64,000 bases of DNA, taken from IMG/VR virus record IMGVR_UViG_3300025138_000017, one strand, 5' to 3'. Both the position numbers and the translations under genes were made by a program. Origin of the DNA: an uncultured virus (IMG/VR IMGVR_UViG_3300025138_000017) (lineage: Duplodnaviria > Heunggongvirae > Uroviricota > Caudoviricetes). The first letter of the stretch is position 1; every line of letters begins with the position of its first letter. Positions 5,655 to 45,379 of this stretch are shown in pieces. Under the pieces are notes generated by a model, which was not told where the DNA came from, did no database searches, and saw nothing but the letters and a program-made list of their open reading frames with translations.

Positions 5655-6174
5655 ACCAACTTATCAACACTAAACGGTTGCCCCTTTCAACTTGACCTAC
5701 TCCATGCATTAATTGTTTATCGTATACCAACGATTGTCCTACATGCATATCAATTACTTTTGGAATGCATCTATCGCCTATAGGCGCATCTCCCTTTCTA
5801 TATTTGTTCTCTGGCCTGCCCCTTTTTTCGTATGGCAACATGGCTAATGCTTGGCCACCTTTTAAGTCATCTGATGCATCTAAGAATGTGACGATAGTTA
5901 ATCCAACTGCATCATCGTTATCGGTATGAAATTTAGTAAACGATTCTTCTGTATAGTCTAGGAAGTAATGTCTAAATGTTTTTTCATGGTTAGATGCATA
6001 TTGATCTATTGCTCCAAAGCATTCCATTTCAACTTGCGACTTTTCAGGATGCCTTTTATCTACATCAAATAAATTGTAGTCTTGATGTGCTAGCTCTGAT
6101 GGCAATGAATTGTACACATCTATTAATTGTTTTCTGTGAGTATCGCTTATAATGTTTTCAATTTTGTAATACAT
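5638..6174 (-). CDS. 2OG-Fe(II) oxygenase
   Basis: FHTD (HxD), LKGG, HGVGQVERGNRLVLISW. Confidence 0.8.
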   Translation of the reverse strand: MYYKIENIISDTHRKQLIDVYNSLPSELAHQDYNLFDVDKRHPEKSQVEMECFGAIDQYASNHEKTFRHYFLDYTEESFTKFHTDNDDAVGLTIVTFLDASDDLKGGQALAMLPYEKRGRPENKYRKGDAPIGDRCIPKVIDMHVGQSLVYDKQLMHGVGQVERGNRLVLISWYGHAI

Positions 6175-6207
6175 AAAAAAAGGTCCCTATAATATATATT
6201 TAACGCC

Positions 6208-6234
6208 AAAAGGGCCCTACAGGGCCCTTTCTTT
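6208..6234. terminator. Intrinsic terminator hairpin (probably bidirectional) after the DUF932 gene
   Basis: AAAAGGGCCC-TACA-GGGCCCTTT inverted repeat with A/T flanks. Confidence 0.75.
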
Positions 6235-6246
6235 GTAGCTACTTAA

Positions 6247-7221
6247 TTAAGCAGCTTCTGCAAAAGCAAGAGCAGACTCTAACGCCTTAACCTTCTTGAC
6301 TTTATTGACACCGTACCAAGCAGAGTTGATTCTGGAATCATTTTCTCTACCAAGCTCGTGGTCAGTCAAATATGTTACAGCGTTGAATGCTTGCCAGAAT
6401 GAACCTTCTGCGTATTGCGCGCCAGGTTGAGTTCCAACAACTTCCATTGCTCTCTTTGCATTTTTAGATCCATACTTAAGGAAGTCCTCAGTATTAGCTG
6501 GATCGAATCCAATGCCTTTCACTTTAGGGTTCTGATTAGCGAACACTGTAGTGAAATAAGTTCTAAGAGACTCAGGAGTATAACGCTTAGAAGATAAGAA
6601 CTGAGCCATATCTTTATAAGTTTCCATTTTGCCTTTAGCAACTCCAAGTAGCTCTTTAGCTTCTTGAACATCAAACGCTTTCTTATGGTTAAGAGAAACT
6701 TGATAGTCTCCTTTCTGAGCAAGAGAAAGAGTAAGCGTATTGTTACATACAACTCTTATAGGAGTAAACCTAATATCTACTGCTCTACCATACATATGTG
6801 GATTAGTTAGAAGCAAATAAGAATCTACTTTATCTCCACCGTTAATTGTAAAGTCATCCTTTACTTTAGCAAGTGCCCAAACTCTTTTACCGTCTTGTAA
6901 AGAACCAGCAGTATGCATTTCCATATCACCAGCATCACAAAACTCTCTAAAGAATTCAAACGCATCTGAGTTTTGAACAGGAACCCAGTTTTCCTTTACC
7001 ATGTCAAGAGGCATTCCATCAGAACTTCTCACTAACATATCGTGACCAGAATAGATTTTCTCGCCATTGAAATCTGCTAATGCAGGAATCTTTTCGACTT
7101 GCCAATCTAAACCAGCTTCTCTGATCATATCGTCTACGCCGATACCATCTGCTACTTTCGTACCAAGACCATGCCAAGGAAGTTCCCCTGCGTAAGCCAT
7201 TGTTTCTACCATATGTGCCAT
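6247..7221 (-). CDS. DUF932 / TIGR03299-family phage protein
   Basis: MAHMVETMAYAGELPWHGLG, TAGSL.DG, TPIRVVCNNTL, WQAFNAVT motifs. Confidence 0.85.
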   Translation of the reverse strand: MAHMVETMAYAGELPWHGLGTKVADGIGVDDMIREAGLDWQVEKIPALADFNGEKIYSGHDMLVRSSDGMPLDMVKENWVPVQNSDAFEFFREFCDAGDMEMHTAGSLQDGKRVWALAKVKDDFTINGGDKVDSYLLLTNPHMYGRAVDIRFTPIRVVCNNTLTLSLAQKGDYQVSLNHKKAFDVQEAKELLGVAKGKMETYKDMAQFLSSKRYTPESLRTYFTTVFANQNPKVKGIGFDPANTEDFLKYGSKNAKRAMEVVGTQPGAQYAEGSFWQAFNAVTYLTDHELGRENDSRINSAWYGVNKVKKVKALESALAFAEAA

Positions 7222-7256
7222 AATTTATTTCTCCTATTAGTTTAAATTATACAGCT

Positions 7257-7285
7257 ATTATACAAAATAGTTCATTTAAAGTCAA
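7257..7285 (-). promoter_or_regulatory. sigma70-type early promoter
   Basis: TTGACT-N17-TATAAT. Confidence 0.85.
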
Positions 7286-7293
7286 CAGTTATT

Positions 7294-7824
7294 TTAAATT
7301 ATTTTTGCATTAATTATTCTGGCTATGTTTTGTACCCATTCATTAATACGATCATCTGACATTTCTGGTTGGTTTTCTTCATCTAAGCAAAGACCCCAGA
7401 ATACTCCTTCAGTCATTACGGCTTGTGATTCTTTAAAGTCATGGCCATCAGTAGTGGTTAAACATTCAACTGATCCACCAGCCTCTGTTACTGCTCTACC
7501 TAATAAGCCTACAGCATCGCAATAGTAAGTAGGGTATCCTACCTGATCGCCTAGCCCATATATGAATATAGTCTTGTCTGTAAAGTTAGTGTCTTTGAAA
7601 GTAGGGAGATACCAATTCCAATCTTGAGACATCTCTCCATCAAACCACGTTGGCGCTCCTAATATATAATAATCATGCGACGTCCAATCTTCTGGTTGGA
7701 TGTCATGTACCATTACTATCTCTGACTCTATATTATAATGCTCTAAGAGCTCCTTCTTAATATACTTAGCATGGTACTCTGTATTACCAGTATCGGTTCC
7801 TACTACTATTTTTACCTTATTCAT
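7294..7824 (-). CDS. fldA: Long-chain flavodoxin
   Basis: GTDTGNTE FMN loop, GAPTWFDGE, YGLGDQ.GY, GLCLDEENQ. Confidence 0.9.
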   Translation of the reverse strand: MNKVKIVVGTDTGNTEYHAKYIKKELLEHYNIESEIVMVHDIQPEDWTSHDYYILGAPTWFDGEMSQDWNWYLPTFKDTNFTDKTIFIYGLGDQVGYPTYYCDAVGLLGRAVTEAGGSVECLTTTDGHDFKESQAVMTEGVFWGLCLDEENQPEMSDDRINEWVQNIARIINAKII

Positions 7825-7935
7825 TATTTTTCCTTATCTATACCTGACCTACTCACAGACGAGATGATCCACTAAAAAGAATCAAAAGTCAACAGCTAAT
7901 ATATATATTTTAGTAAAAAGTTAAAAAAGTCGATA

Positions 7936-7964
7936 TTGACTTTTAATCTAAATTGTAGTATAAT
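7936..7964 (+). promoter_or_regulatory. sigma70-type promoter (the ORF-track TTG start is this -35 box)
   Basis: TTGACT-N17-TATAAT. Confidence 0.85.
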
Positions 7965-7974
7965 GGACTCTATT

Positions 7975-8784
7975 ATGATAAAAGCGAAAATGATTTGCGA
8001 TTTCAATAATCCCATCTCTGTTGCGTATTCAAAGATAGCTCTCAAGACTTGGGAAGCTGTTGAGAATGTTGAGGTCGAAAGGTTTCAATGTTATACGCCC
8101 GCTACTATAAACGATGCACCTTTTAAAATCAACTGGGGCAAATATAGTAGTGCTGGTAAGTATAAAACAAACAGACATGAGATAACTCCGACAGAGAAGG
8201 CATGCCTTACCTCAATGTTTCATTGGTGGAAGCATATAGCTGATACAGGAGAGCAAGTTATTATATTAGAACATGATGCATATGTCACTCACCCTAAAAA
8301 ACTGATGGCGCTAGTTGACGAGATAGAAGGTAAAGATTTGTGGTGTGTTGGCATTGCAATGGAATGTGTATCAATGTCACCTGGCTTTGCAAGATACTGT
8401 ATGAGTAAGTGGCAGACAGTTAATGAAATGATTGATGCAGGACCAATGGCAGAGCTGTTTACAGCATTTACAGAATATACTGACATGCTCGATAGATTTG
8501 ATGGCAAGAAAGAAAAAATTGAGGTACAGAAACTTTCTAGCAAAGCCAAAAGAGCAAGATTGTTATGGCCTACTATTCATTCAAAGAATAAATTAGGAAT
8601 GTCTAATAGATGGAAAGAAGCACTGAGTGGTACAAAGGGATTACAGAATGCTCCAGTTACTCAATGCTTTTATCCTAAAGTAGACTCGACAATAGAGCAT
8701 AGCAAGAAGTTAGGATCAATTTACGAACCAACAACATACAGACAATTACACATACTGGAGAAACTATATGAAAGAGGAAGCTAG
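7975..8784 (+). CDS. GT25-like glycosyltransferase
   Basis: TEKACLTSMFHWW...VIILEHDA matches the GT25 pattern; start placed after the promoter. Confidence 0.6.
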   Translation: MIKAKMICDFNNPISVAYSKIALKTWEAVENVEVERFQCYTPATINDAPFKINWGKYSSAGKYKTNRHEITPTEKACLTSMFHWWKHIADTGEQVIILEHDAYVTHPKKLMALVDEIEGKDLWCVGIAMECVSMSPGFARYCMSKWQTVNEMIDAGPMAELFTAFTEYTDMLDRFDGKKEKIEVQKLSSKAKRARLLWPTIHSKNKLGMSNRWKEALSGTKGLQNAPVTQCFYPKVDSTIEHSKKLGSIYEPTTYRQLHILEKLYERGS

Positions 8785-9388
8785 ATTAGCAGCAGCAGAA
8801 AGATTGGCAAAGGCTAGAGAGGAGAGGTATAAAAAGAACCCTCCTAAGTATACTCAGTTTGCACCATCAGTTGTAGCATTAGATGATGACCATGACTTTA
8901 GTTTAAAAAATGTACGTGAATGGATTAAAGAAGCTAAGATGCATAAAACTTCTGAACATAGATCCCATGTTGGTGGAGATAAATCTGCACTTGCAAGAAG
9001 AATAACTTGGGAAGGTTATATTTCTCAATTAGATGGCTATTTGAGAACCGGTGATTATACCAGTCCATTTGCTGGAGGCGATATGGAAAGAAAAGTAAAG
9101 AGAGCATGTATTGCAATGGCATACTTTCCTAACGGAAAACCTAAAAGAGAGTTTGGCGTATTCTATAATGACTATATGCAAGACTGGACACCAGAGCTAG
9201 AGAATGAAGAGCGAGAAAGTTATGGTATGCCTAAACTTGAGTTTACAGAAAAAGGTCATATACTAGTTTCAACATCTAGTGCTAAGAAGACTACCAAGTC
9301 TAAAAAGAAAAGAAAGCCAATGGGATTATTACAGAAGCAAGCATTTGTTGATAGAATGAAGAAAGCACGTGAAGCTAAACAAAAGTGA
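8768..9388 (+). CDS. Conserved hypothetical T4-like phage protein
   Basis: ERLAKARE N-terminus, YLRTGDY; coupled ORF with RBS. Confidence 0.65.
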   Translation: MKEEARLAAAERLAKAREERYKKNPPKYTQFAPSVVALDDDHDFSLKNVREWIKEAKMHKTSEHRSHVGGDKSALARRITWEGYISQLDGYLRTGDYTSPFAGGDMERKVKRACIAMAYFPNGKPKREFGVFYNDYMQDWTPELENEERESYGMPKLEFTEKGHILVSTSSAKKTTKSKKKRKPMGLLQKQAFVDRMKKAREAKQK

Positions 9389-12575: not shown

Positions 12576-13561
12576 TTACTTAGTAATGATGTTAAGAAAA
12601 CTTCCCATTGCTTTGATCTCACATCCCATGAATAGAAACCATCAGCATATGCTTTTTGCATTTGCAATCTTTCTTTCATAGATGGTTCTTCAACTAATCT
12701 CATAGCGTCAGCTAAGGTTAAAGCATGCCTCGAAGCGTGCTCATTCATGTCCTGTGTATAATCATACATTAGGGTCCAATTAGCAGCTGTCTCAGGTAGT
12801 GCTGCAAGACTACTATGTACACATATGCATCCAGCACTCATAGCCTCTATGAGAGCAATACAAGAAGTCTCAGGCCATATGCTTGGTAGAGCAAATATAT
12901 GAGCTTTCTGTAATGCTTTGTGTATCTCTTTATTATCTACGTGTCCGTGATAAGTCATTTTAGGATGCTTTTTAATTTTATCAAACAGAGGCTGGAATTC
13001 TTTATCTCTTTCTTCCCAACCATATATCCCAAATGAACTATAAACATCTAAGTGCCAGTTAATGTCAGGTAGAGTCTGCTCAATCCATTCCATGACCGGA
13101 TACAACAAATCTAATCCTCTATGAGGAGTAGTATGATAAATTAAATTAACACATTCTTTGGAATCTGGTTTTGTATGTTCCGGAATAGGTTCAATGGCGT
13201 TTTGTAATACAGTCAAAGAACCAGCTGGAACATTTAGATAGTTTTCTATTTGTTGTCTTTGCCAATGTGACACGCACACTATACCATCAAACTTATTATG
13301 GCCGCCATCTTTAAGATGAGCCATTTCTGGATCGCCAGCTAAGTCGTGTACCCAATAGATTGGTTTCTTGCCTTTCTTTGTTCCTCTAAACCTTGATGGA
13401 ATTATTTGAAACTTATCAAGAGTAGCATCATCTAACTTATCAAACAATGCATGTTTCATTATCTCAGTTCCACCCATTGCATTCTGATCTACTTCGTTTT
13501 GTTCAGCTTTAACTCTAGCGTCCTTTGCTGCTTTAGGATCACCGATTACGTTTAACTTCAT
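12572..13561 (-). CDS. Glycosyltransferase, GT-B (GT4-like)
   Basis: GGTE, YHTTPHRGL, PSIWPETSCIALIEAMSAG (Ex7E). Confidence 0.88.
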   Translation of the reverse strand: MKLNVIGDPKAAKDARVKAEQNEVDQNAMGGTEIMKHALFDKLDDATLDKFQIIPSRFRGTKKGKKPIYWVHDLAGDPEMAHLKDGGHNKFDGIVCVSHWQRQQIENYLNVPAGSLTVLQNAIEPIPEHTKPDSKECVNLIYHTTPHRGLDLLYPVMEWIEQTLPDINWHLDVYSSFGIYGWEERDKEFQPLFDKIKKHPKMTYHGHVDNKEIHKALQKAHIFALPSIWPETSCIALIEAMSAGCICVHSSLAALPETAANWTLMYDYTQDMNEHASRHALTLADAMRLVEEPSMKERLQMQKAYADGFYSWDVRSKQWEVFLTSLLSK

Positions 13562-13803
13562 AGTCCGTACTTAGCGTCAATTGCTCTATGAGCAATAAGT
13601 TGATCATACCCACCGATGAGTTGATCATCTTTGTATATTTGAGGCATGGTTCTTGCGTTAGGATTTTTTTCCATCAATTCCGTAAAGAATTCTGGATCCT
13701 CATTGATATTTTTTACTTGTACTTCTGCTTCGTGTTGAAGCTCGAACTTAGCCTTTTCGCAATAAGGGCAGTTGTTCTTTGAATAAATTAGCCACTTGGT
13801 CAT
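13558..13803 (-). CDS. grx: Glutaredoxin
   Basis: CPYC active site, TMPQI, IGGY. Confidence 0.93.
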   Translation of the reverse strand: MTKWLIYSKNNCPYCEKAKFELQHEAEVQVKNINEDPEFFTELMEKNPNARTMPQIYKDDQLIGGYDQLIAHRAIDAKYGL

Positions 13804-13818
13804 AATATAGTTCCTCAG

Positions 13819-14133
13819 TTAAAATTGTACGCTTGCTCCACAACCGCACGAGTTTGTTTCTTTTGGGTTTAAAACTTTTACAGTAGTATTTATTCCTTCT
13901 GTAATAACATCCAATGTAGATCCCTCTATCATTGGAGCCGACATTACATCTATAACAACTCCGAACTTACCGAAGTCAATTATAATATCATCAGCTGATA
14001 CATCATTGTCCCAATCAATTTTGTATTCAAATCCTGTACACCCAGCAGGCATTAAACCTATTCTAACATATTCTCCTTCCGCTCTCAAGTTATTCATAAC
14101 ATGAGTAATTGCTCTGTCTGTTAGATCAATCAT
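13819..14133 (-). CDS. iscA: IscA/HesB Fe-S assembly A-type carrier
   Basis: GCTGFEY, NP...SCGCGAS. Confidence 0.93.
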   Translation of the reverse strand: MIDLTDRAITHVMNNLRAEGEYVRIGLMPAGCTGFEYKIDWDNDVSADDIIIDFGKFGVVIDVMSAPMIEGSTLDVITEGINTTVKVLNPKETNSCGCGASVQF

Positions 14134-14593
14134 TTGGTGGATTATTGTGACCCACCATAGACCCTGCTGTGTCTAATATTGGATGGTTGTAGTCCTTGTC
14201 GTTCTTTGTTTCATAATCTACCATAGCCTGTCTAATAGCATCTTCTGCTAGTACGCTACAATGTAGTTTAATTGGAGGTAAGTTTAATACCTCTGCAATA
14301 TCTTTATCTTTAATTAATTTTGCTTCTGCAATAGTCTTACCCATCATCATGTCTACAAATAATGATGAAGATGCAATTGCTGATCCGCAACCATATGTTT
14401 TAAATTTAACATCAATTATTTTTTCATTATCATCTAGTAGTAGCTGTAGTTGCATTACATCACCACACGCAGGCGCGCCTGCAAGTCCTGTTGCAACATT
14501 CGGGTCTTTCCTATCTAAACTTCCGACGGAATGTTTTTTAGGATTTGCTAATACGGCTTCGAACCGTTGTACTACTTCGTCTGAATATGCCAT
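14126..14593 (-). CDS. iscU: Fe-S scaffold IscU
   Basis: MAYS, GAPACGDVM, FKTYGCGSAIASSS, LPPIKLHCSVLAEDAI. Confidence 0.95.
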   Translation of the reverse strand: MAYSDEVVQRFEAVLANPKKHSVGSLDRKDPNVATGLAGAPACGDVMQLQLLLDDNEKIIDVKFKTYGCGSAIASSSLFVDMMMGKTIAEAKLIKDKDIAEVLNLPPIKLHCSVLAEDAIRQAMVDYETKNDKDYNHPILDTAGSMVGHNNPPND

Positions 14594-14757
14594 TAATTGT
14601 ATTGTTCGTTGTTTTCTATTATTCTAGGCATGTATACTTCTACATATGCCTGACAGTTTGGACAGGTTAAATTAGTAACCATGTCATATGTTTCATCTTC
14701 TTCGAGGTCGTGATCGCCACCCCAAATTAATTCTGTACCGCAGTGCCAACAATTCAT
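14593..14757 (-). CDS. Small zinc-ribbon protein
   Basis: MNCWHC...LTCPNC; start reassigned to MNCWHCG. Confidence 0.6.
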   Translation of the reverse strand: MNCWHCGTELIWGGDHDLEEDETYDMVTNLTCPNCQAYVEVYMPRIIENNEQYN

Positions 14758-14939
14758 ATAAGGCCTATTGATCTGAATACTGGAAAGTAATATCCTGTTC
14801 CCGTCCACCAAACTATAATATTATTGATAATCATAATCTTAAAAAACCCTATCCAAAAAATTGTCCAAGCTGCTTTTTTTCCTTTACTGAATATGAAGTT
14901 TAATATTGGAAACTTCCAAAACCATAATCTAATTTTCAT
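14754..14939 (-). CDS. Small membrane protein
   Basis: Hydrophobic 61-aa ORF coupled to its neighbours. Confidence 0.5.
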   Translation of the reverse strand: MKIRLWFWKFPILNFIFSKGKKAAWTIFWIGFFKIMIINNIIVWWTGTGYYFPVFRSIGLI

Positions 14940-14942
14940 TTA

Positions 14943-15812
14943 TTAAACTGCTTGTTCTTCAAGCCATTCAATATCATTATACTCAGGATGAATGTTATCC
15001 AATTTTACAAGGTCCTTATATTTTTCACAGAACTGTTTATATTTTACTGGCACCCCAATGTCAAATTCTTGTCTTATCTCTTCAATATCTCTTTCAAGTA
15101 AAGCTCCAACATCCTGATACCACAATCCTTTAGCAGCTGCTTTTTTACTGAGTCGTTCTGATTCAAAGTAAACTCTGAAAGGATCTAAAGATTTTGTTTG
15201 CATTGCAATTCCAGCTGCAATAGCTAGACCACACCATCTCATTGGAAAATAATTTACTTGTTTATATGTAACACCCTGTACAGCGGATTCGCCCATTGAT
15301 GATGTATCATATCTGAATAATGTATGGTAAACATCATGTAGCAAATAAAGGTATCTGTTTATATTAACTCTTATATCATCAACAGCACCACCATATATTC
15401 CATAAATGTCTCTACTGTTATTATTAATGACCTCTTCTTCCTGATATCTATTTTCGTATACGTCCTCTAGTGGAAAATTTTTAAACATATGGCCCAAGTG
15501 ACCGCCTAATGTATTAGCGGGTAGGGATTGCAACCATTCAAGATCTGACAATTTTTTTACCGTAACATTCTTTACGTGATCGGGGTCGTTAAATCTTCTA
15601 CCCCATAGAATATCTCTTCCCTCAGAAGTACTTCTGAGTTTATATAATAAACTAAAATTACCAGTAAATCTAAGTTCACGGTATAATGTAGGAATGGCAT
15701 CAACTCTTTCATTGCCATTATAATCTTCAAATTTAGTTTCTTTTCCCTTGTCAGTTCCATAGTGATTTACTATGATACTAGTTGCTTTCCAAATTTTATG
15801 TATTCTCCACAT
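14943..15812 (-). CDS. Coq4-like (ubiquinone biosynthesis family) metalloprotein
   Basis: LQSLPANTLG and HDVYHTLFRYDTSSMGE (HDxxH-x11-E) motifs. Confidence 0.7.
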   Translation of the reverse strand: MWRIHKIWKATSIIVNHYGTDKGKETKFEDYNGNERVDAIPTLYRELRFTGNFSLLYKLRSTSEGRDILWGRRFNDPDHVKNVTVKKLSDLEWLQSLPANTLGGHLGHMFKNFPLEDVYENRYQEEEVINNNSRDIYGIYGGAVDDIRVNINRYLYLLHDVYHTLFRYDTSSMGESAVQGVTYKQVNYFPMRWCGLAIAAGIAMQTKSLDPFRVYFESERLSKKAAAKGLWYQDVGALLERDIEEIRQEFDIGVPVKYKQFCEKYKDLVKLDNIHPEYNDIEWLEEQAV

Positions 15813-15830
15813 AGTAGGATCTCCTATAAT

Positions 15831-16007
15831 TTACTTCTCTGATACAATAAATGTATACACACCATAGGCTAGTGCTACGTAAGCTAACCAGTCTATAAGT
15901 CCACCTAATAATATCCAACACAGGGATAACCCTATAATTACACCACCATCCCAGGTAGTTCTTTCTGCCCAACGGGCCATGATCCAATTTTTTGCTGTAT
16001 CTAACAT
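15831..16007 (-). CDS. Small two-TM membrane protein
   Basis: MLDTAKNW...ERTTWDG hydrophobic ORF with RBS. Confidence 0.55.
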   Translation of the reverse strand: MLDTAKNWIMARWAERTTWDGGVIIGLSLCWILLGGLIDWLAYVALAYGVYTFIVSEK

Positions 16008-16024
16008 ACAATCTCCGTTTTTTA

Positions 16025-16474
16025 TTATTCCCAGGGAAATACGATCCAATCGTCTTCCCTATCTTTATTTATAGTCTCTCCACACACGTTGACCTTCATT
16101 TGAGATGAGGGCTTACTTAATAATGTAGCAAATTTAGGGTTTTTCATGGCCCTTAAATAAAATTGATTATGGACTTCACGCAATGTGCGACCAGAATCGT
16201 TTATATCATCAACTATAAGTAAATTGTTGTATTTGTAAACATCTTGCCACTTAAATTTAGACTCAGGGGCTTTACCATCTCTGAGAGAGATGTTTAGTGT
16301 ATAAAGTTTACAATCGTAACAATGCGAAAGATTGACAGCAGGAATTAATCCTCCTCTTGTCAATCCTATTATTGCATCTGGTTTCCATTTGCCAAGTTGA
16401 GAGATGATTGATTGAACCATCTCATCATACTCTTCCCAGCTGACTACTCGTCTGCTTACTTCTGAAAGTACCAT
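16025..16474 (-). CDS. Purine phosphoribosyltransferase (Gpt-like)
   Basis: GLTRGGLIPA, LIVDDINDSGRT PRPP loop, WIVFPWE. Confidence 0.9.
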   Translation of the reverse strand: MVLSEVSRRVVSWEEYDEMVQSIISQLGKWKPDAIIGLTRGGLIPAVNLSHCYDCKLYTLNISLRDGKAPESKFKWQDVYKYNNLLIVDDINDSGRTLREVHNQFYLRAMKNPKFATLLSKPSSQMKVNVCGETINKDREDDWIVFPWE

Positions 16475-16998
16475 TCAGGATTTTGTTGCATCCATTTTAA
16501 AACTGCTTCAGGTGTTGAAGCAACATATGAATCGTCGTCTGCATTGTCTCTCATTTCAGGTTCTGCAAACACATCAATAACGGTTTGCGTGTCTCCATCA
16601 ACAAGCATTGCATATCTCCAAGAACGCATACCAAAGTTTACGTTTCTCTTCTGACAATTCATTCCAAATTTCTGACACAAGTCTCCATTTCCATCAGGTA
16701 GTGATCTTACATTTTCAATATCATGCTTATCAAACCAAGCATTCATTACAAACGGATCATTTACTGTAGTACAATAGATGTTATCAACCCCTAGTTCTTT
16801 AAACTTACTAAAAAGTTTTTCAAATCCAGGTAATTGCTTAGAAGAGCATGTTGGAGTAAATGCACCAGGTAGACCAAAGATAAGAACTTTCTGTCCTTGT
16901 ATTTCTTTGTTGAAATCTATCTTAATCCATTCACCAGCTTTCCTGTCAGCATAGTTAAATAATGGAAATTTATCTCCTTTAGCTATCATCCGGTGCAC
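16456..16998 (-). CDS. Peroxiredoxin (Prx5/AHP1 type)
   Basis: GLPGAFTPTCS, VNDPFVMNAW, RSWRYAM. Confidence 0.93.
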   Translation of the reverse strand: MHRMIAKGDKFPLFNYADRKAGEWIKIDFNKEIQGQKVLIFGLPGAFTPTCSSKQLPGFEKLFSKFKELGVDNIYCTTVNDPFVMNAWFDKHDIENVRSLPDGNGDLCQKFGMNCQKRNVNFGMRSWRYAMLVDGDTQTVIDVFAEPEMRDNADDDSYVASTPEAVLKWMQQNPEWYFQK

Positions 16999-38272: not shown

Positions 38273-38623
38273 TTATTTACCTATGTGTTTAATGTCTGTT
38301 GATGGGATAACTTGATACGCACCTTTATTGTACGCTGGAGCTACTGTGAAATTTTTCGAGATCTTAACCTTCTCTTCCGCAAATCGTTTTGCTTCCATCT
38401 CTTCTCTATGTGCTTTTGCTTTCTCAAATGCACTCTTAAGAGTAGGCTTATACGACTGGTGGAGCTGAGAGGGATCGAACCTCCGACCTTCTGGTTGCAA
38501 ACCAGACGCTCTCCCAACTGAGCTACAGCCCCTCATTTTTTTGCTAGGCTTTAATGAGGTTGTCTTACGTTTACGACCATGCATATCATATCGTAAACTT
38601 CCTACCATGTTAATTGTTCCCAT
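38273..38623 (-). CDS. Conserved hypothetical phage protein spanning a tRNA gene
   Basis: RBS AGGAG; SLRYDMHGRKRK N-terminus and VAPAYNKGAYQVI C-terminus; open frame across the tRNA. Confidence 0.65.
   Translation of the reverse strand: MGTINMVGSLRYDMHGRKRKTTSLKPSKKMRGCSSVGRASGLQPEGRRFDPSQLHQSYKPTLKSAFEKAKAHREEMEAKRFAEEKVKISKNFTVAPAYNKGAYQVIPSTDIKHIGK
38457..38532 (-). tRNA. tRNA-Ala(UGC) with encoded CCA
   Basis: GGGGCTG/CAGCTCC acceptor with G3:U70, D arm GCTC/GAGC, anticodon TGC, GGTTCGATCC T-loop, ACCA end; 76 nt. Confidence 0.95.
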
Positions 38624-40140: not shown

Positions 40141-40578
40141 TTACCATCCACCTACATCAAAACATGGTATTCCATTATCTCTCCACATCTTGACTACCGA
40201 CGGTCTATCGTCAACAGTAAATTGTGGCTTAAGGTCTTCTGCTATGAATAGATCCAAGACATCTTTCTTGAACTCATGATCTGGGTCATAGTTATTATCA
40301 GGTCTCATGATTAAACGCATGTAGTCAAGGTTACCAAGTGCTAATTGCTTTTCAGTAATCTCTCTCTGTTTCTCCATACGTCCACTAAGAACAATAATTT
40401 TATAGCCATCTTTAGCCAATGCGTTAGCCATTTGAAACACATGATCGTTGATTGTGTCGTATGTGATATACGAATTGAATGACTTCCAGTCTTTGTTGTC
40501 TCCCTCAACATAGTGACGCCTATGCTCTATGTTCATAAGCGTTCCGTCTACATCAAAGAATGCTATTCTGTTCTTCAT
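40141..40578 (-). CDS. HAD phosphatase (PseT C-terminal-like)
   Basis: FDVDGTL, LSGR, LIMRP, VDDRPSVVKMWR. Confidence 0.85.
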   Translation of the reverse strand: MKNRIAFFDVDGTLMNIEHRRHYVEGDNKDWKSFNSYITYDTINDHVFQMANALAKDGYKIIVLSGRMEKQREITEKQLALGNLDYMRLIMRPDNNYDPDHEFKKDVLDLFIAEDLKPQFTVDDRPSVVKMWRDNGIPCFDVGGW

Positions 40579-40994
40579 AAGTAAAATTCCTCTTCTATAG
40601 GAAGCTCATGCAATGTAGCTTGAGCTAATATTGCATCTTCCATGTAGTCTACCTTTTCATCTAACTGATTGAATAGTTTAACAGCTATATCTGCTGCACT
40701 ACTATCATCATAACTTTTTCCACCTACATTCCAAGTAGTCTTAACATACTGATCATGTAGATTGCGAGAAAAGTGCCAATCGTATAACGTAAAAGTACCA
40801 TACTTTCTATCTCCTTCACCATCACTGACTTGATATTCAATGATCCATTCTGTTGTGATCTTATCACCAATCCCTTCAAAGGCTGGTTTCCCAAACATTC
40901 TTACTAGATCACTGTAAGATGCCTCTATATTACCTTGTAGAGAAGTACCATGTGTGTATCCACGCTCGCAAGGTATTAACTGTATTGTTTGCAT
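40575..40994 (-). CDS. Early hypothetical protein
   Basis: GTSLQG...FGKP...FTLYDW...WNVGG; promoter TTGACT-N17-TATAAT at 41024-41052. Confidence 0.65.
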   Translation of the reverse strand: MQTIQLIPCERGYTHGTSLQGNIEASYSDLVRMFGKPAFEGIGDKITTEWIIEYQVSDGEGDRKYGTFTLYDWHFSRNLHDQYVKTTWNVGGKSYDDSSAADIAVKLFNQLDEKVDYMEDAILAQATLHELPIEEEFYL

Positions 40995-41073
40995 ATTGAA
41001 CTCCTTTTATCAAATATAGACCCATTATACTAAATCCTTGATTAGAAGTCAACAGTTAATGTGATGTTACCAC

Positions 41074-41099
41074 AAAAAAAAAGACCCCGGAGGGTCTTT
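41074..41099 (-). terminator. Intrinsic terminator ending the candidate large ncRNA
   Basis: AAAGACCC-TCCG-GGGTCTTT followed by a T-tract. Confidence 0.88.
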
Positions 41100-41561
41100 C
41101 TTCTCGACTGCTTTGCATCGGACTTATATCGTACTCGTTAATCTCAGAGCTCCAGGTAGGGTTAGCCGAAGCATCCTACTATCTCTTGCTAAGAGAATGG
41201 ATCCTGAACCGCTAAGTTCTTGTGTCGTTATCAAGTGCGAACCTAATAACCTATCCCTTTCCGACTGCAGGGTTTCTCTCCCATGTTAGTATCAAGCGTT
41301 TCTTCATACCCGCGACTAGCTCAGTCTCTATTGATTCGTCCTACGTTTGGTCCCCGATGTACTATACCTCTTCCAGGTCGGTCTTCCTATACACATTTGG
41401 ACTTCTGCCGATTCAAATGCTTTGAGCTACCGCTCGGGGTGTCCACCTGTCTTCTTACCTCTGAGCAACTGATAAGGTTGCCATCTCGTGTAAACTGTCT
41501 CCTCAGGGTAGGTAATTGCATTTTACCTTTTCTCTTCCTTCGGGGGTGTTTCCCTCAATAT
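41074..41561 (-). ncRNA. Candidate large structured non-coding RNA (~490 nt)
   Basis: Consensus promoter (41568-41596) and terminator bracket a GC-enriched, hairpin-dense segment with no minus-strand ORF of 60 aa or more. Confidence 0.7.
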
Positions 41562-41567
41562 GATACT

Positions 41568-41596
41568 ATTATACTAAATTGTATCTTTGAAGTCAA
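41568..41596 (-). promoter_or_regulatory. sigma70-type promoter
   Basis: TTGACT-N17-TATAAT. Confidence 0.85.
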
Positions 41597-41694
41597 CAGT
41601 TATTTTAAATTAATTTTAGTTTATTTGAGCCAACTGATCATGAGAGATAGTTGAACGCTCTTAGAACGTGTTATATTAAGTCTGAGACCGGGTA

Positions 41695-41886
41695 TTAGTT
41701 GCTATACTTGGACCATATACCTGTTCTAACTAGCATACTGCATACAAACACAATACCTACCCAAACAGATGGAACAGCAAATAGAAAATGTAGTATGTAT
41801 ACAATGATAGCTGCTGTCACAGTATCTGCTATAACAAGTCCAGTTCTCTTTCCATACTCTTTTGCTTTATTCATCATCAACTCCAT
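41695..41886 (-). CDS. Small membrane protein
   Basis: Two hydrophobic segments. Confidence 0.5.
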   Translation of the reverse strand: MELMMNKAKEYGKRTGLVIADTVTAAIIVYILHFLFAVPSVWVGIVFVCSMLVRTGIWSKYSN

Positions 41887-42208
41887 GCAGCCTTATAAAA
41901 TATTCAGCATCCACGACTACTAATGGCTTACTGTTGTTCTTCTTCATAAACAATACTGGCTCATAATCACCACTATTGGCTTCTGCCTGTTCATATGACT
42001 TCCACACATTTACTTTTTCTTGATTCTTGCATTCAATTGAGTAAGGAAACTTAGAGCGGGCTGCTCTAGCCATAATTAGGTCCTCACCACCTGCACCCAT
42101 TGATCTTGATTCTATATCTTCTGGATGGACAGATAGCTTTTCAATCAATAGGTCTCTAACCCATTGCTGGAACCTTCTTCCTTTAGCTTTTGCTGATGAT
42201 GTTTTCAT
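41867..42208 (-). CDS. PD-(D/E)XK nuclease / Holliday-junction-resolvase-like protein
   Basis: AKAKGRRFQ, GEDL, SIECKNQE. Confidence 0.7.
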   Translation of the reverse strand: MKTSSAKAKGRRFQQWVRDLLIEKLSVHPEDIESRSMGAGGEDLIMARAARSKFPYSIECKNQEKVNVWKSYEQAEANSGDYEPVLFMKKNNSKPLVVVDAEYFIRLHGVDDE

Positions 42209-42768
42209 TTACTATACTCCATATTCACTTTACTATGACGAGCCTCATCTGCTCTCACTTTTATAATTAAATCAGATAACTTTGCACTCTTCTTCATCTT
42301 ATAATAATCTATTGCTAACTGTGGTGCTGGGACATTTTCCACTTGACCATTCTCTATCATTTCTAAGTATTGAGTATAACTGATCACTGCTTCTTCTTCA
42401 AAGTAAGCTATCATTCTATGTGCTGTCTTAAAATCTATGATGTAAATTATAAAATAGAACCACCAGAATATTAATTGAGCTATTAACACTAACAGTCTTT
42501 CAAACCAATTAGGTCTAGCTATCTCGATAAAGAACATCAAATGCATTCTCTCGTTCTCAGCTTCTTCTAGCATCTCTCTTATCTGTGGTCCCCATCCAGT
42601 CTTCATCTTTCTAAGACTTTTGAGGTGTAACCACATACCAGCAACCATTCCTGGTACACCAGCTATTGTTTCTAATACTACAGCTCTATGGCCATATCTT
42701 TTAGCAAAAAATGTGTCGGCAATGAATCTGAAAAACTTTGTCATTGATTTCGCAAATACATCTCTCAT
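42205..42768 (-). CDS. aox: Alternative (ubiquinol) oxidase AOX
   Basis: LETIAGVPG, EAENERMHL, FEEEAV.SY, RADEARH di-iron motifs. Confidence 0.93.
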   Translation of the reverse strand: MRDVFAKSMTKFFRFIADTFFAKRYGHRAVVLETIAGVPGMVAGMWLHLKSLRKMKTGWGPQIREMLEEAENERMHLMFFIEIARPNWFERLLVLIAQLIFWWFYFIIYIIDFKTAHRMIAYFEEEAVISYTQYLEMIENGQVENVPAPQLAIDYYKMKKSAKLSDLIIKVRADEARHSKVNMEYSK

Positions 42769-44633: not shown

Positions 44634-44669
44634 AGCATGTATTATACTCTATGATCAACTAGAAGTCAA

Positions 44670-44942
44670 CTATACTAGCTCAATTCCGCTTGTATGAGTT
44701 CTGTAAGCCTTTTCGACTTGTTCGTTTGTCTCTGTTAGAAACACGTAGTTTTGAATATGTTGCTCTTCTGGACTTTCTACTCCAGTTTGACAGATACCTC
44801 TTGCGAAGCCCATCTCACCATTTGGTCCTTGTACAACCATTCTTGGATCAGTTAGGTGTACACCTGACTCATCTTTCTCTACAAATTTGCCAACGAACTC
44901 GCCAGCCATTGTGATCACCGTCACTACATCATTCTTTTTCAT
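44670..44942 (-). CDS. Small Sm-like hypothetical protein
   Basis: GEFVGK...DPR...Y...TSGI pattern seen in T4-like phages. Confidence 0.55.
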   Translation of the reverse strand: MKKNDVVTVITMAGEFVGKFVEKDESGVHLTDPRMVVQGPNGEMGFARGICQTGVESPEEQHIQNYVFLTETNEQVEKAYRTHTSGIELV

Positions 44943-45379
44943 TTCATAGTCTCCTGAATAAATTCCCCAAGTGTTTTTATATCCTGATCACTTAACATAC
45001 CAGCCTGACCCCACATAAGAGCGCTTTGTGGTCCTATTGTACCATTATTCTTATATGTAGTCAACTTATTAATAATATTACCAGAACTTTGTCCTGCTAA
45101 CTTAGGTCCTATACCTCCACCGCCATCTGGTCCATGACATGCAGCACATCCTGCCCACAGACCTCTAATGTCACTGAATGGATCACCTGCTGCAGCTTCT
45201 TTTGCTGCAACTAACTGTTCTACTACAGTACCATTTAACTCCACATACTCTGCATAACACATTCCTGTGCATGAATGAGTACTAGGATAACCTTTTACTT
45301 CTAAATCAGGATATATAACCGTAACAAAAAATAATGTAAAAGCAATACATCCTAATAATACTGTTCCCAATTCTCTCAT
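44939..45379 (-). CDS. Membrane-anchored c-type cytochrome (c553/c4-like)
   Basis: CAACHG heme motif, GPKLAGQ, distal Met (ALMWGQA), N-terminal TM. Confidence 0.88.
   Translation of the reverse strand: MRELGTVLLGCIAFTLFFVTVIYPDLEVKGYPSTHSCTGMCYAEYVELNGTVVEQLVAAKEAAAGDPFSDIRGLWAGCAACHGPDGGGGIGPKLAGQSSGNIINKLTTYKNNGTIGPQSALMWGQAGMLSDQDIKTLGEFIQETMK

Follow-up and report, generated by a model that had tools for sequence, protein, structure and literature searches.

What is encoded in the roughly 490 nt at positions 41,074 to 41,561 of the 64,000-nt stretch that we analyzed from the uncultured virus IMGVR_UViG_3300025138_000017 (hereafter the window)? An earlier note, made from the letters of this DNA alone, had proposed a large phage noncoding RNA (ncRNA) of the same general kind as ROOL and GOLLD, perhaps representing a new class. 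Our analysis supports that proposal: the minus strand almost certainly carries a gene for an ncRNA of about 490 nt at this place, and the checks suggested by the note that could be run (an Rfam search, covariation among marine homologs, coverage in metatranscriptomes and conservation of the longest open reading frame, ORF) all came out in its favor. The fuller reading that we prefer, with moderate confidence, is that of a stand-alone gene for a stable, trans-acting, structured RNA, representing a new family of marine T4-type phages with an early promoter, two domains, a self-pairing loop and the organization of a mobile cassette.

Relatives of the RNA were collected by exact-pattern scans using its conserved stretches. 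Pattern scans of IMG/VR returned 13 and 15 loci, the pattern of the 5′ end returned 33 IMG/VR loci, and a scan of metagenome contigs gave 21 loci, one of which (L034) is a chance match. Removal of duplicates left 34 distinct RNAs, all from marine viral or metagenome contigs, which range from about 90% identity to very divergent sequences. The family consists of about 33 IMG/VR contigs plus metagenome contigs, and the ncRNA is conserved far above its flanks. A model of the 225-nt 3′ domain (R1) scores family members at 277 down to 61 bits and finds a single copy in the window, at 271 bits. The core of the family measures about 405-460 nt, to which some relatives add a 3′ extension of about 100-230 nt.

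The boundaries of the gene are those of an autonomous transcription unit. A promoter of the form TTGMCN-N16-18-TAYAAT is found in 33 of the 34 distinct homologs, its end always 9 nt upstream of the conserved 5′ end TTGAGGGA; the sequence of the remaining homolog starts at a contig end. The conserved start of the RNA reads ...UUGAGGGA, with the promoter at this fixed 9-nt distance. The site that the earlier note had read as a consensus promoter at 41568-41596 is this conserved promoter, and the strong intrinsic terminator that it had placed at the other end is confirmed as a hairpin followed by nine U residues; the terminator-scan program did not list this hairpin. A hairpin and a U-run are kept at the terminator position in 14/14 window-type rows, and the stems of the terminators differ freely among relatives. 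The GC enrichment noted for the segment also holds, at 0.47 for the 3′ domain against 0.37 for the whole window. A further promoter lies just past the terminator, at 41052; it is near-identical to the one at 41596, both are of the early type, and the two share the extended motif AACTGTTGACTT (...TATAAT).

Comparison of the relatives argues strongly for a conserved secondary structure. RNAalifold applied to 22 full-length sequences (alignment A2) gave a model of 97 pairs in 21 helices, in which 98.3% of the cells are standard pairs. Compensatory double changes occur at 30 of the 97 pairs, against 1-8 in six slid controls in which the 3′ partners were shifted by 1-3 columns, and the observed values were reached by none of 500 column shuffles. 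When divergent members are included, the 3′ domain (26 distinct sequences, 54 pairs) has 95.8% of its cells paired and double changes at 31 pairs, against 2-9 in slid controls, in an alignment that was fitted to R1 and hence leans towards the model. Whole helices have been swapped for other complementary sequences, for example GACUGAGGC/GCCAGCCAGUC versus GGUAC..CCCAAC/GUUGGGUACC, or GGG-AGAGAAA-CCC versus GAU-UUAGAU-AUC. The helix P1, which closes the 5′ domain, changes from A-U to G-C in two sequences, and P5 is represented in relatives by ACCCGU/ACGGGU and CCCAUA/UAUGGUGGG. An all-against-all covariation scan was swamped by the phylogeny of a few clades. As judged by covariation, the predicted fold is real, and the ncRNA comprises two independently closed multi-helix domains.

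Seven of the ten pairings that the earlier note had listed agree with the covariation-supported model (GGTAA/TTACC, GCAAC/GTTGC, GTTATTAGGT/ACTTGATAAC, GAAC/GTTC, GTAGG/CCTAC, CCCCGA/TCGGGG and CATTTG/CAAATG, the last as an insert limited to window-type relatives). The other three disagree with it. The GAGC/GCTC hairpin gives way to CGGY/RCCG, the TCTCTT/AAGAGA hairpin is replaced because UCUC pairs with a downstream GAGA, with compensating changes, and the long-range pairing CTCAGAG/CTCTGAG finds no compensation in relatives.

The relatives also differ in their parts. In many of them, 3′ extensions of two types lie before the terminator. One is a long stem enclosing a motif that ends in UAACGAAUUACGUUAAC, to which L080, L090 and L069 add a further ~140 nt; the other is a different long hairpin, found in L060, L061, L064, L071 and L087. 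In L069 a shortened 5′ domain is joined directly to the 3′ extension, without the 3′ domain. With the extra hairpin of the window type, the 3′ extensions and this junction, the family is modular.

One hairpin deserves particular attention. P3a directly follows the invariant AAGAGAAA, and its loop, L3a, contains a palindromic tetranucleotide in 34/34 distinct variants (UGCA in 22, CGCG in 9 and ACGU in 3). P3a occurs in 11 stem/loop combinations, with stems such as AGGUAA, GGUAA, GUAGAAC, GUAGAU, CUACCA, CUAACA, AUAGAA and others. By chance, 13%, 24% and 29% of random loops of 5, 7 and 8 nt, respectively, contain a palindromic 4-mer, and most other terminal loops of the ncRNA do so in few of their variants (0 to 2). 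The exception is the loop of P11, which is palindromic in 4 of 7 loop types: non-window-type members carry UUAA, AAUU or CUUAAG where the window type forms a UUCG tetraloop. Among the A2 sequences with CGCG or ACGU in L3a, this 4-mer is found nowhere else in the RNA and thus has no intramolecular partner; adjacent nucleotides of a loop cannot pair with each other. The L3a palindrome is switched for another while the stem changes, which leads us to infer that two copies of the RNA join in a symmetric kissing loop. Kretsch et al. (PMC12286853) argue from palindrome switching for the symmetric kissing loops of OLE (L9.3) and GOLLD (L21a), where the internal tetranucleotide changes among GGCC, GAUC and AGCU. 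L3a shows the same signature in its sequence, that is, covariation between palindromes as used for kissing loops of ornate large RNAs. Self-pairing of the ncRNA through L3a is plausible, and on the sequences at hand we hold the arguments for and against it to be evenly balanced.

The RNA matches no known family. With the 4227 models of Rfam 15 at gathering scores, the only match in the whole window was a tRNA at 38460-38532. At E≤10 over positions 40900-41750 seven weak matches scored 15.7-21.3 bits, where the thresholds are 50-122, and most of them fell on the terminator or the wrong strand; at E≤1 seven divergent loci gave only a tRNA and one 21.5-bit match outside the ncRNA. The models covered include ROOL, GOLLD, OLE, HEARO, raiA, tmRNA, RNase P and 6S, as well as T-box, cobalamin, group I/II introns, manA, wcaG and IMES. 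The ncRNA therefore falls outside GOLLD, ROOL, OLE and all 4227 families, in line with the earlier note, which could not match it to tmRNA, RNase P or 6S ends and had considered a new class possible. ARAGORN found no tmRNA in the window or the relatives, and the pairing partner of the 5′ end lies midway along the RNA rather than at its 3′ end. Two resemblances, a T-box-like sequence (GGUGGNAC) and cobalamin-riboswitch motifs, were dropped, as neither Rfam model matches.

Our search of the literature found no prior description of this RNA. The candidates of the phage-wide screen of Fremin et al. 2023 are all of at most 151 nt (PMC10690425), and fragments of the ncRNA could therefore be among them; its supplements gave no match, with three large files outside the search. 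The RNA was searched in four forms with blastn, and none of them matched any of 50,697 cultured-phage records. R1 found nothing at E≤1 in the genome of Pelagibacter phage HTVC008M, the one pelagiphage genome scanned, or in the nearest virus record, G001; the locus of G001 that had been collected as L002 falls elsewhere in the same phage (at window 5755-8806) and has no value as a relative. A scan of viral contigs with a 3′-domain pattern added no contig. One exact-pattern scan of 185,579 bacterial and archaeal species genomes gave five matches, none with the spacing of the family, which is no proof of absence from cells; we take these matches as chance because their spacing is 47-69 nt, against the fixed 64 of the family. 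Taken together, the family is new to Rfam and very probably undescribed.

Its closest likenesses are the ornate large RNAs, with which it shares a length above 400 nt and many helices maintained by covariation. Like GOLLD and ROOL, it is phage-encoded, stands alone, measures several hundred nucleotides and has many covarying helices; like GOLLD, it combines a better-conserved core with parts that are variable or modular in some relatives, and L3a resembles the GOLLD loop L21a, whose internal tetranucleotide switches between palindromes (PMC12286853). It differs from both in being smaller (about 405-490 nt), in its two separately closed domains and in matching no Rfam model. GOLLD and ROOL form RNA-only nanocages (PMC12286853). 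They are found in phages and prophages, often beside tRNA islands; the carriers here are marine T4-type myoviruses, and a tRNA lies within the flanks of only 2/36 loci. The likeness to ROOL and GOLLD proposed in the earlier note thus stands in kind, as a large phage ncRNA, and fails as family membership. OLE, a dimeric RNA of about 600 nt, binds bS21 among other proteins (PMC12286853, PMC12054373). It is likewise a large structured RNA, its L9.3 kissing loop is backed by palindrome covariation (PMC12286853) and it has a Shine-Dalgarno-like AGUAGG in a stem (PMC12054373), as does the present RNA; carriers of the present RNA encode S21. Unlike our RNA, OLE is encoded by the chromosomes of Bacillota extremophiles and acts together with the membrane proteins OapA, OapB and OapC, and no sequence or model match connects the two. 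Finally, manA, wcaG and IMES are structured RNAs reportedly described from marine phages and metagenomes by Weinberg et al. in 2009/2010; they share the marine habitat, manA and wcaG are said to be phage-associated and IMES to be abundant in metatranscriptomes, but they are 2-4 times smaller, and all are in Rfam without matching the ncRNA.

Sequences from RNA libraries contain the ncRNA. Part of an 851-nt stretch around it is held by 20 public runs, of which 8 are RNA libraries; these hold 0.29-0.45 of the sampled words of the stretch, and the best DNA runs hold 0.87-1.00. When contigs from four seawater RNA libraries of four studies were placed on 1.9 kb, 9/9 pieces fell within 41095-41548, the metatranscriptome coverage that the earlier note had suggested looking for. 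The stated depths of RNA-library contigs reach 148, and several of these contigs end in sequence recognized as sequencing adapter. The flanks (40400-41039 and 41552-42300) are uncovered in all four runs, which we do not count as evidence. Such contigs cannot show the ends, strand or level of an RNA, and DNA may be present in RNA libraries; they therefore support the presence of the ncRNA in RNA pools and are no proof of its transcript boundaries.

This limit weighs against the reading that we prefer, as do several other results. The promoter scan by itself is at the level of chance (36 sites, against 31.2 +/- 4.9 in shuffles), and single-sequence folding is not beyond it either (z = -1.05, with 12/100 shuffles folding equally well), which is why the case rests on comparison with relatives. 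The model is weak at the junction helix UCGGA/UCCGA, which is broken in the variants and 89% paired. Another pairing of the central junction (A4 columns 15-18 with 224-227) does no better overall, at 76% paired, although its pair 17:225 is kept in 26/26 sequences with two compensatory changes. The case for self-pairing draws on one loop only, with perhaps three to four independent loop replacements, and the UCGCG version is a 5-nt loop, tight for a kiss of 4 bp. The genes that follow the RNA in many relatives belong on the same side of the balance and are taken up below.

In the mechanism that we propose, the gene is carried by uncultured marine T4-type myoviruses of the pelagimyophage/cyanomyophage group and would probably be transcribed by unmodified host RNA polymerase, from the early sigma70-type promoter to the intrinsic terminator, as these signals suggest. 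The transcript folds into its two independently closed multi-helix domains, as covariation shows, and L3a would form a symmetric kissing loop with its counterpart on a second copy. The active form may then be a homodimer or some larger assembly made of RNA only, as for OLE, GOLLD and ROOL, and we would guess that its target, bound or enclosed, is a translation-linked factor of the host or the phage. The unit of promoter, RNA and terminator would behave as a mobile cassette at varying places in phage genomes. A bolder version is possible but decidedly tentative: the family could be a further natural class of RNA-only particle, self-assembling through a kissing loop, whose early-type promoter and linkage to hemC and S21 point to a retuning of host translation or tetrapyrrole metabolism.

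It is rare for a new class of large ncRNA with an intricate fold to come to light, and RNase P, group I/II introns, tmRNA, OLE, GOLLD and ROOL each revealed new RNA biology or architecture. The present family is found in seawater RNA libraries of several studies and carries a sequence signature of RNA-RNA self-assembly. With a core of about 415 nt, it is small enough for in vitro work and cryo-EM and therefore provides a tractable test of self-assembly as a general property of large phage RNAs. In addition, its conserved neighborhood of hemC and S21 leads to two concrete functional hypotheses.

The surroundings of the RNA bear both on the idea of a mobile cassette and on its main alternative. 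The ncRNA is found in at least four different genome contexts: in different contigs it lies after the major capsid gene and before the tail-tube gene, after a gp41-type helicase gene, before the gene of porphobilinogen deaminase (hemC), or before the S21 gene. In the window it sits between a 63-aa membrane-protein ORF and a 139-aa ORF, the latter followed by a PNKP-phosphatase-domain gene. Where it stands between the capsid and tail-tube genes, TATAAATA, which we take to be the T4 late-promoter consensus, is found between its terminator and the next gene (L008:1690-1715, L016, L010).

The hemC and S21 contexts raise the alternative that the ncRNA is, or descends from, a cis-acting leader (riboswitch-like or attenuator) gating these genes, the window copy being a detached version. 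Porphobilinogen deaminase (PF01379, E 6.6e-56) is encoded directly downstream on the same strand in 15/34 distinct variants and S21 (PF01165) in 4/34, the coding sequence beginning about 15-25 nt past the terminator U-run. No sigma70-type promoter was recognized in between in the sequences inspected, so that hemC and S21 would be expressed largely by read-through and the ncRNA could be, or have been, their leader. The linkage to hemC has been kept although the hemC proteins have diverged to 50-58% identity. In form, then, a riboswitch/attenuator arrangement is present in 19/34 variants, but not in the window, where the next gene has a promoter: TTGACT follows the terminator there and in 10/13 other window-type rows. 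The ncRNA also occupies at least three unrelated genome positions, a by-eye reading of the alignments saw no conserved alternative antiterminator pairing, the terminator stems vary without constraint, and known riboswitch aptamers are smaller than the core by a factor of two to ten. We therefore consider a stand-alone RNA the better reading for the window copy, given its own terminator, the separate promoter of the next gene and the shifting position of the cassette; a leader function or origin is the main rival, though an unlikely one. In one variant (L080:19-93(-), L086:18-92(-)), a tRNA-Glu(UUC) comes next after the extended RNA, which may be a coincidence beside the hemC linkage; glutamyl-tRNA is the precursor of tetrapyrroles in the C5 pathway.

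The organization of the stand-alone gene recalls the promoter-early/stem-loop (PeSL) units, which are proposed to mediate modular shuffling in T4-type phages (PMC2839356, PMC4122927). As in these units, the ncRNA is bounded by near-identical early promoters and a terminator stem-loop and is found at differing genome positions in related phages; unlike them, its cargo is a large ncRNA, whereas PeSLs reportedly flank small protein genes. With its flanking promoter repeats and at least four contexts, the unit has the features of a PeSL-type cassette and may have moved by recombination. The motif AACTGTTGACTT recurs after the ncRNA in relatives, and such repeats could serve as PeSL-type recombination sites. 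Six near-consensus early promoters (11/12 matches) lie within 10 kb on the minus strand of the window, at 44669, 41596, 41052, 39247, 36888 and 36292.

Another possibility is that the RNA is a ribonucleoprotein (RNP) scaffold or sponge for a protein of host or phage origin, bS21 first among the candidates, and so retunes translation during infection. The window encodes S21, which is reported as core to all pelagimyophages (PMC7029224), and S21 directly follows the ncRNA in the four variants mentioned above. The distal P11 stem contains AGUAGG in 11/26 distinct sequences and AGGAGG in 8/26, and the bS21 site of OLE is a stem pairing AGUAGG with CCUCCU (PMC12054373). However, the Shine-Dalgarno-like hexamer is absent from 7/26 sequences, and its partner strand reads CCUAC/CCCUG where an anti-Shine-Dalgarno would read CCUCC. 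Chance alone would give a 6-mer match in 450 nt in about one case out of ten, and in the window S21 lies 11 kb from the ncRNA. We treat the resemblance between P11 and the bS21 site as a lead only, and a role as S21 scaffold as improbable.

A catalytic role, as a ribozyme or as the RNA part of an RNP enzyme (for example a highly divergent RNA of the RNase P or group I type), would fit the large size, the two-domain build and the several invariant unpaired stretches AUGAAGAAAC, ACGACACA and GUUAACGA. Even at E≤10 the ribozyme and RNase P models of Rfam give no match, the RNA lacks the pairing between its 5′ and 3′ ends that RNase P and tmRNA have, and no substrate is evident, so we give this idea very little weight.

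As the earlier note had stated, the minus strand of the segment lacks a substantial ORF, the longest having 44 codons. From the equivalent AUG, relatives have ORFs of 5-75 codons in 15/20 cases and the AUG is absent in 5/20. Variable sites are spread evenly over the codon positions (23/27/26 of 75 each in alignment A3, 57/47/49 in alignment A4), and thus show no codon periodicity; by eye, changes relative to L001 within the 44-codon ORF are mostly non-synonymous, and close relatives differ from one another by indels of 34-35 and 8 nt. A small protein, for which one could cite the ATG-initiated ORF at 41387-41521 or the 123-codon plus-strand ORF at 41283-41654, can be dismissed with near certainty, since the former is not conserved in length or start codon and has its ATG within a covarying palindromic loop, and the longest antisense ORFs of relatives vary from 22 to 78 codons.

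Table 1. Coordinates of the ncRNA gene, its structural elements, neighboring features of the window and related loci
Feature	Position	Strand	Description
Sigma70-type promoter	41596-41568	minus	-35 TTGACT 41596-41591, 17-nt spacer, -10 TATAAT 41573-41568; 11/12 consensus matches
Predicted primary transcript	41561-41074	minus	~488 nt; start estimated from promoter spacing, end from terminator U-run
5′ domain	41562-41327	minus	Closed by P1 (41560-41555 with 41334-41329), AUAUUGA/UCAAUAU; helices 1-11
Hairpin P3a	41528-41510	minus	Stem AGGUAA/UUACCU, loop AAUGCAA; self-complementary UGCA 41520-41517
44-codon ORF	41521-41387	minus	Longest on minus strand, not a gene; AUG inside P3a loop
Hairpin P4a	41482-41465	minus	GGCAAC-CUUAUCA-GUUGCU; helix 7; G-C to A-U in 6 sequences
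Helix P5 and enclosed sub-helices	41439-41352	minus	CCCCGA 41439-41434 with UCGGGG 41357-41352; helices 8-11
Variable insertion hairpin	41424-41389	minus	CAUUUG...CAAAUG; among 22 A2 rows only in window, L012 and L015 (shortened)
3′ domain	41328-41104	minus	225 nt; closed by GACU..GCU/AGC..AGUC; hairpins P7, P8, P10a, P10b, P11
Longest invariant stretch	41226-41200	minus	GACACAAGAACUUAGCGGUUCAGGAUC; identical in 22/22 A2 rows, varies in divergent members
Distal P11 stem	about 41183-41150	minus	Shine-Dalgarno-like 5′ strand; recalls bS21 site of OLE
Intrinsic terminator	41096-41074	minus	GACCC-UCCG-GGGUC + U9; direct reading, folds as terminal hairpin
Next promoter	41052-41024	minus	TTGACT-17-TATAAT; serves downstream 139-aa gene; marks 3′ boundary of RNA cassette
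145-aa protein	40578-40144	minus	PNKP phosphatase domain only (PF25109, E 7.8e-27); two genes downstream of ncRNA
tRNA-Ala	38532-38457	minus	2.5 kb downstream of ncRNA, same strand
Ribosomal protein S21	30292-30062	minus	PF01165, E 7.6e-12
3′ extension	L036:1280-1404(-), L029:1612-1720, L080:95-326(-), L090:1154-1385, L069:856-1068		Long stem enclosing ACGAUURACAAUUC...UAACGAAUUACGUUAAC
hemC-linked relatives	L036, L039, L042, L043, L049, L060, L061, L064, L065, L067, L069, L071, L087, L088, L091		
S21-linked relatives	L020/L029, L035, L062, L070		

Judged by its genes, the window comes from a T4-type myovirus. Those for replication and transcription include gp32, the gp59 helicase loader, RNase H, the late-transcription coactivator, primase and NrdA/NrdB. 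At the DNA level the best matches belong to Pelagibacter phage HTVC008M and to cyanomyophages, with identities of only 66-69% that extend across no more than 11% of 7 kb. The minus strand also carries, at 26060-19003, a block that is unusual for a phage, with an adenylate/guanylate cyclase bearing a CHASE2 sensor (609 aa), a FecR-domain protein and the curli proteins CsgG and CsgF. Auxiliary genes for redox and energy functions are found at 42208-42768, 44942-45379 and 13561-16998 (minus strand); the set comprises an alternative oxidase (42208-42768), cytochrome c, glutaredoxin, IscA-like and NifU-like Fe-S assembly proteins, a Coq4-like protein and peroxiredoxin.

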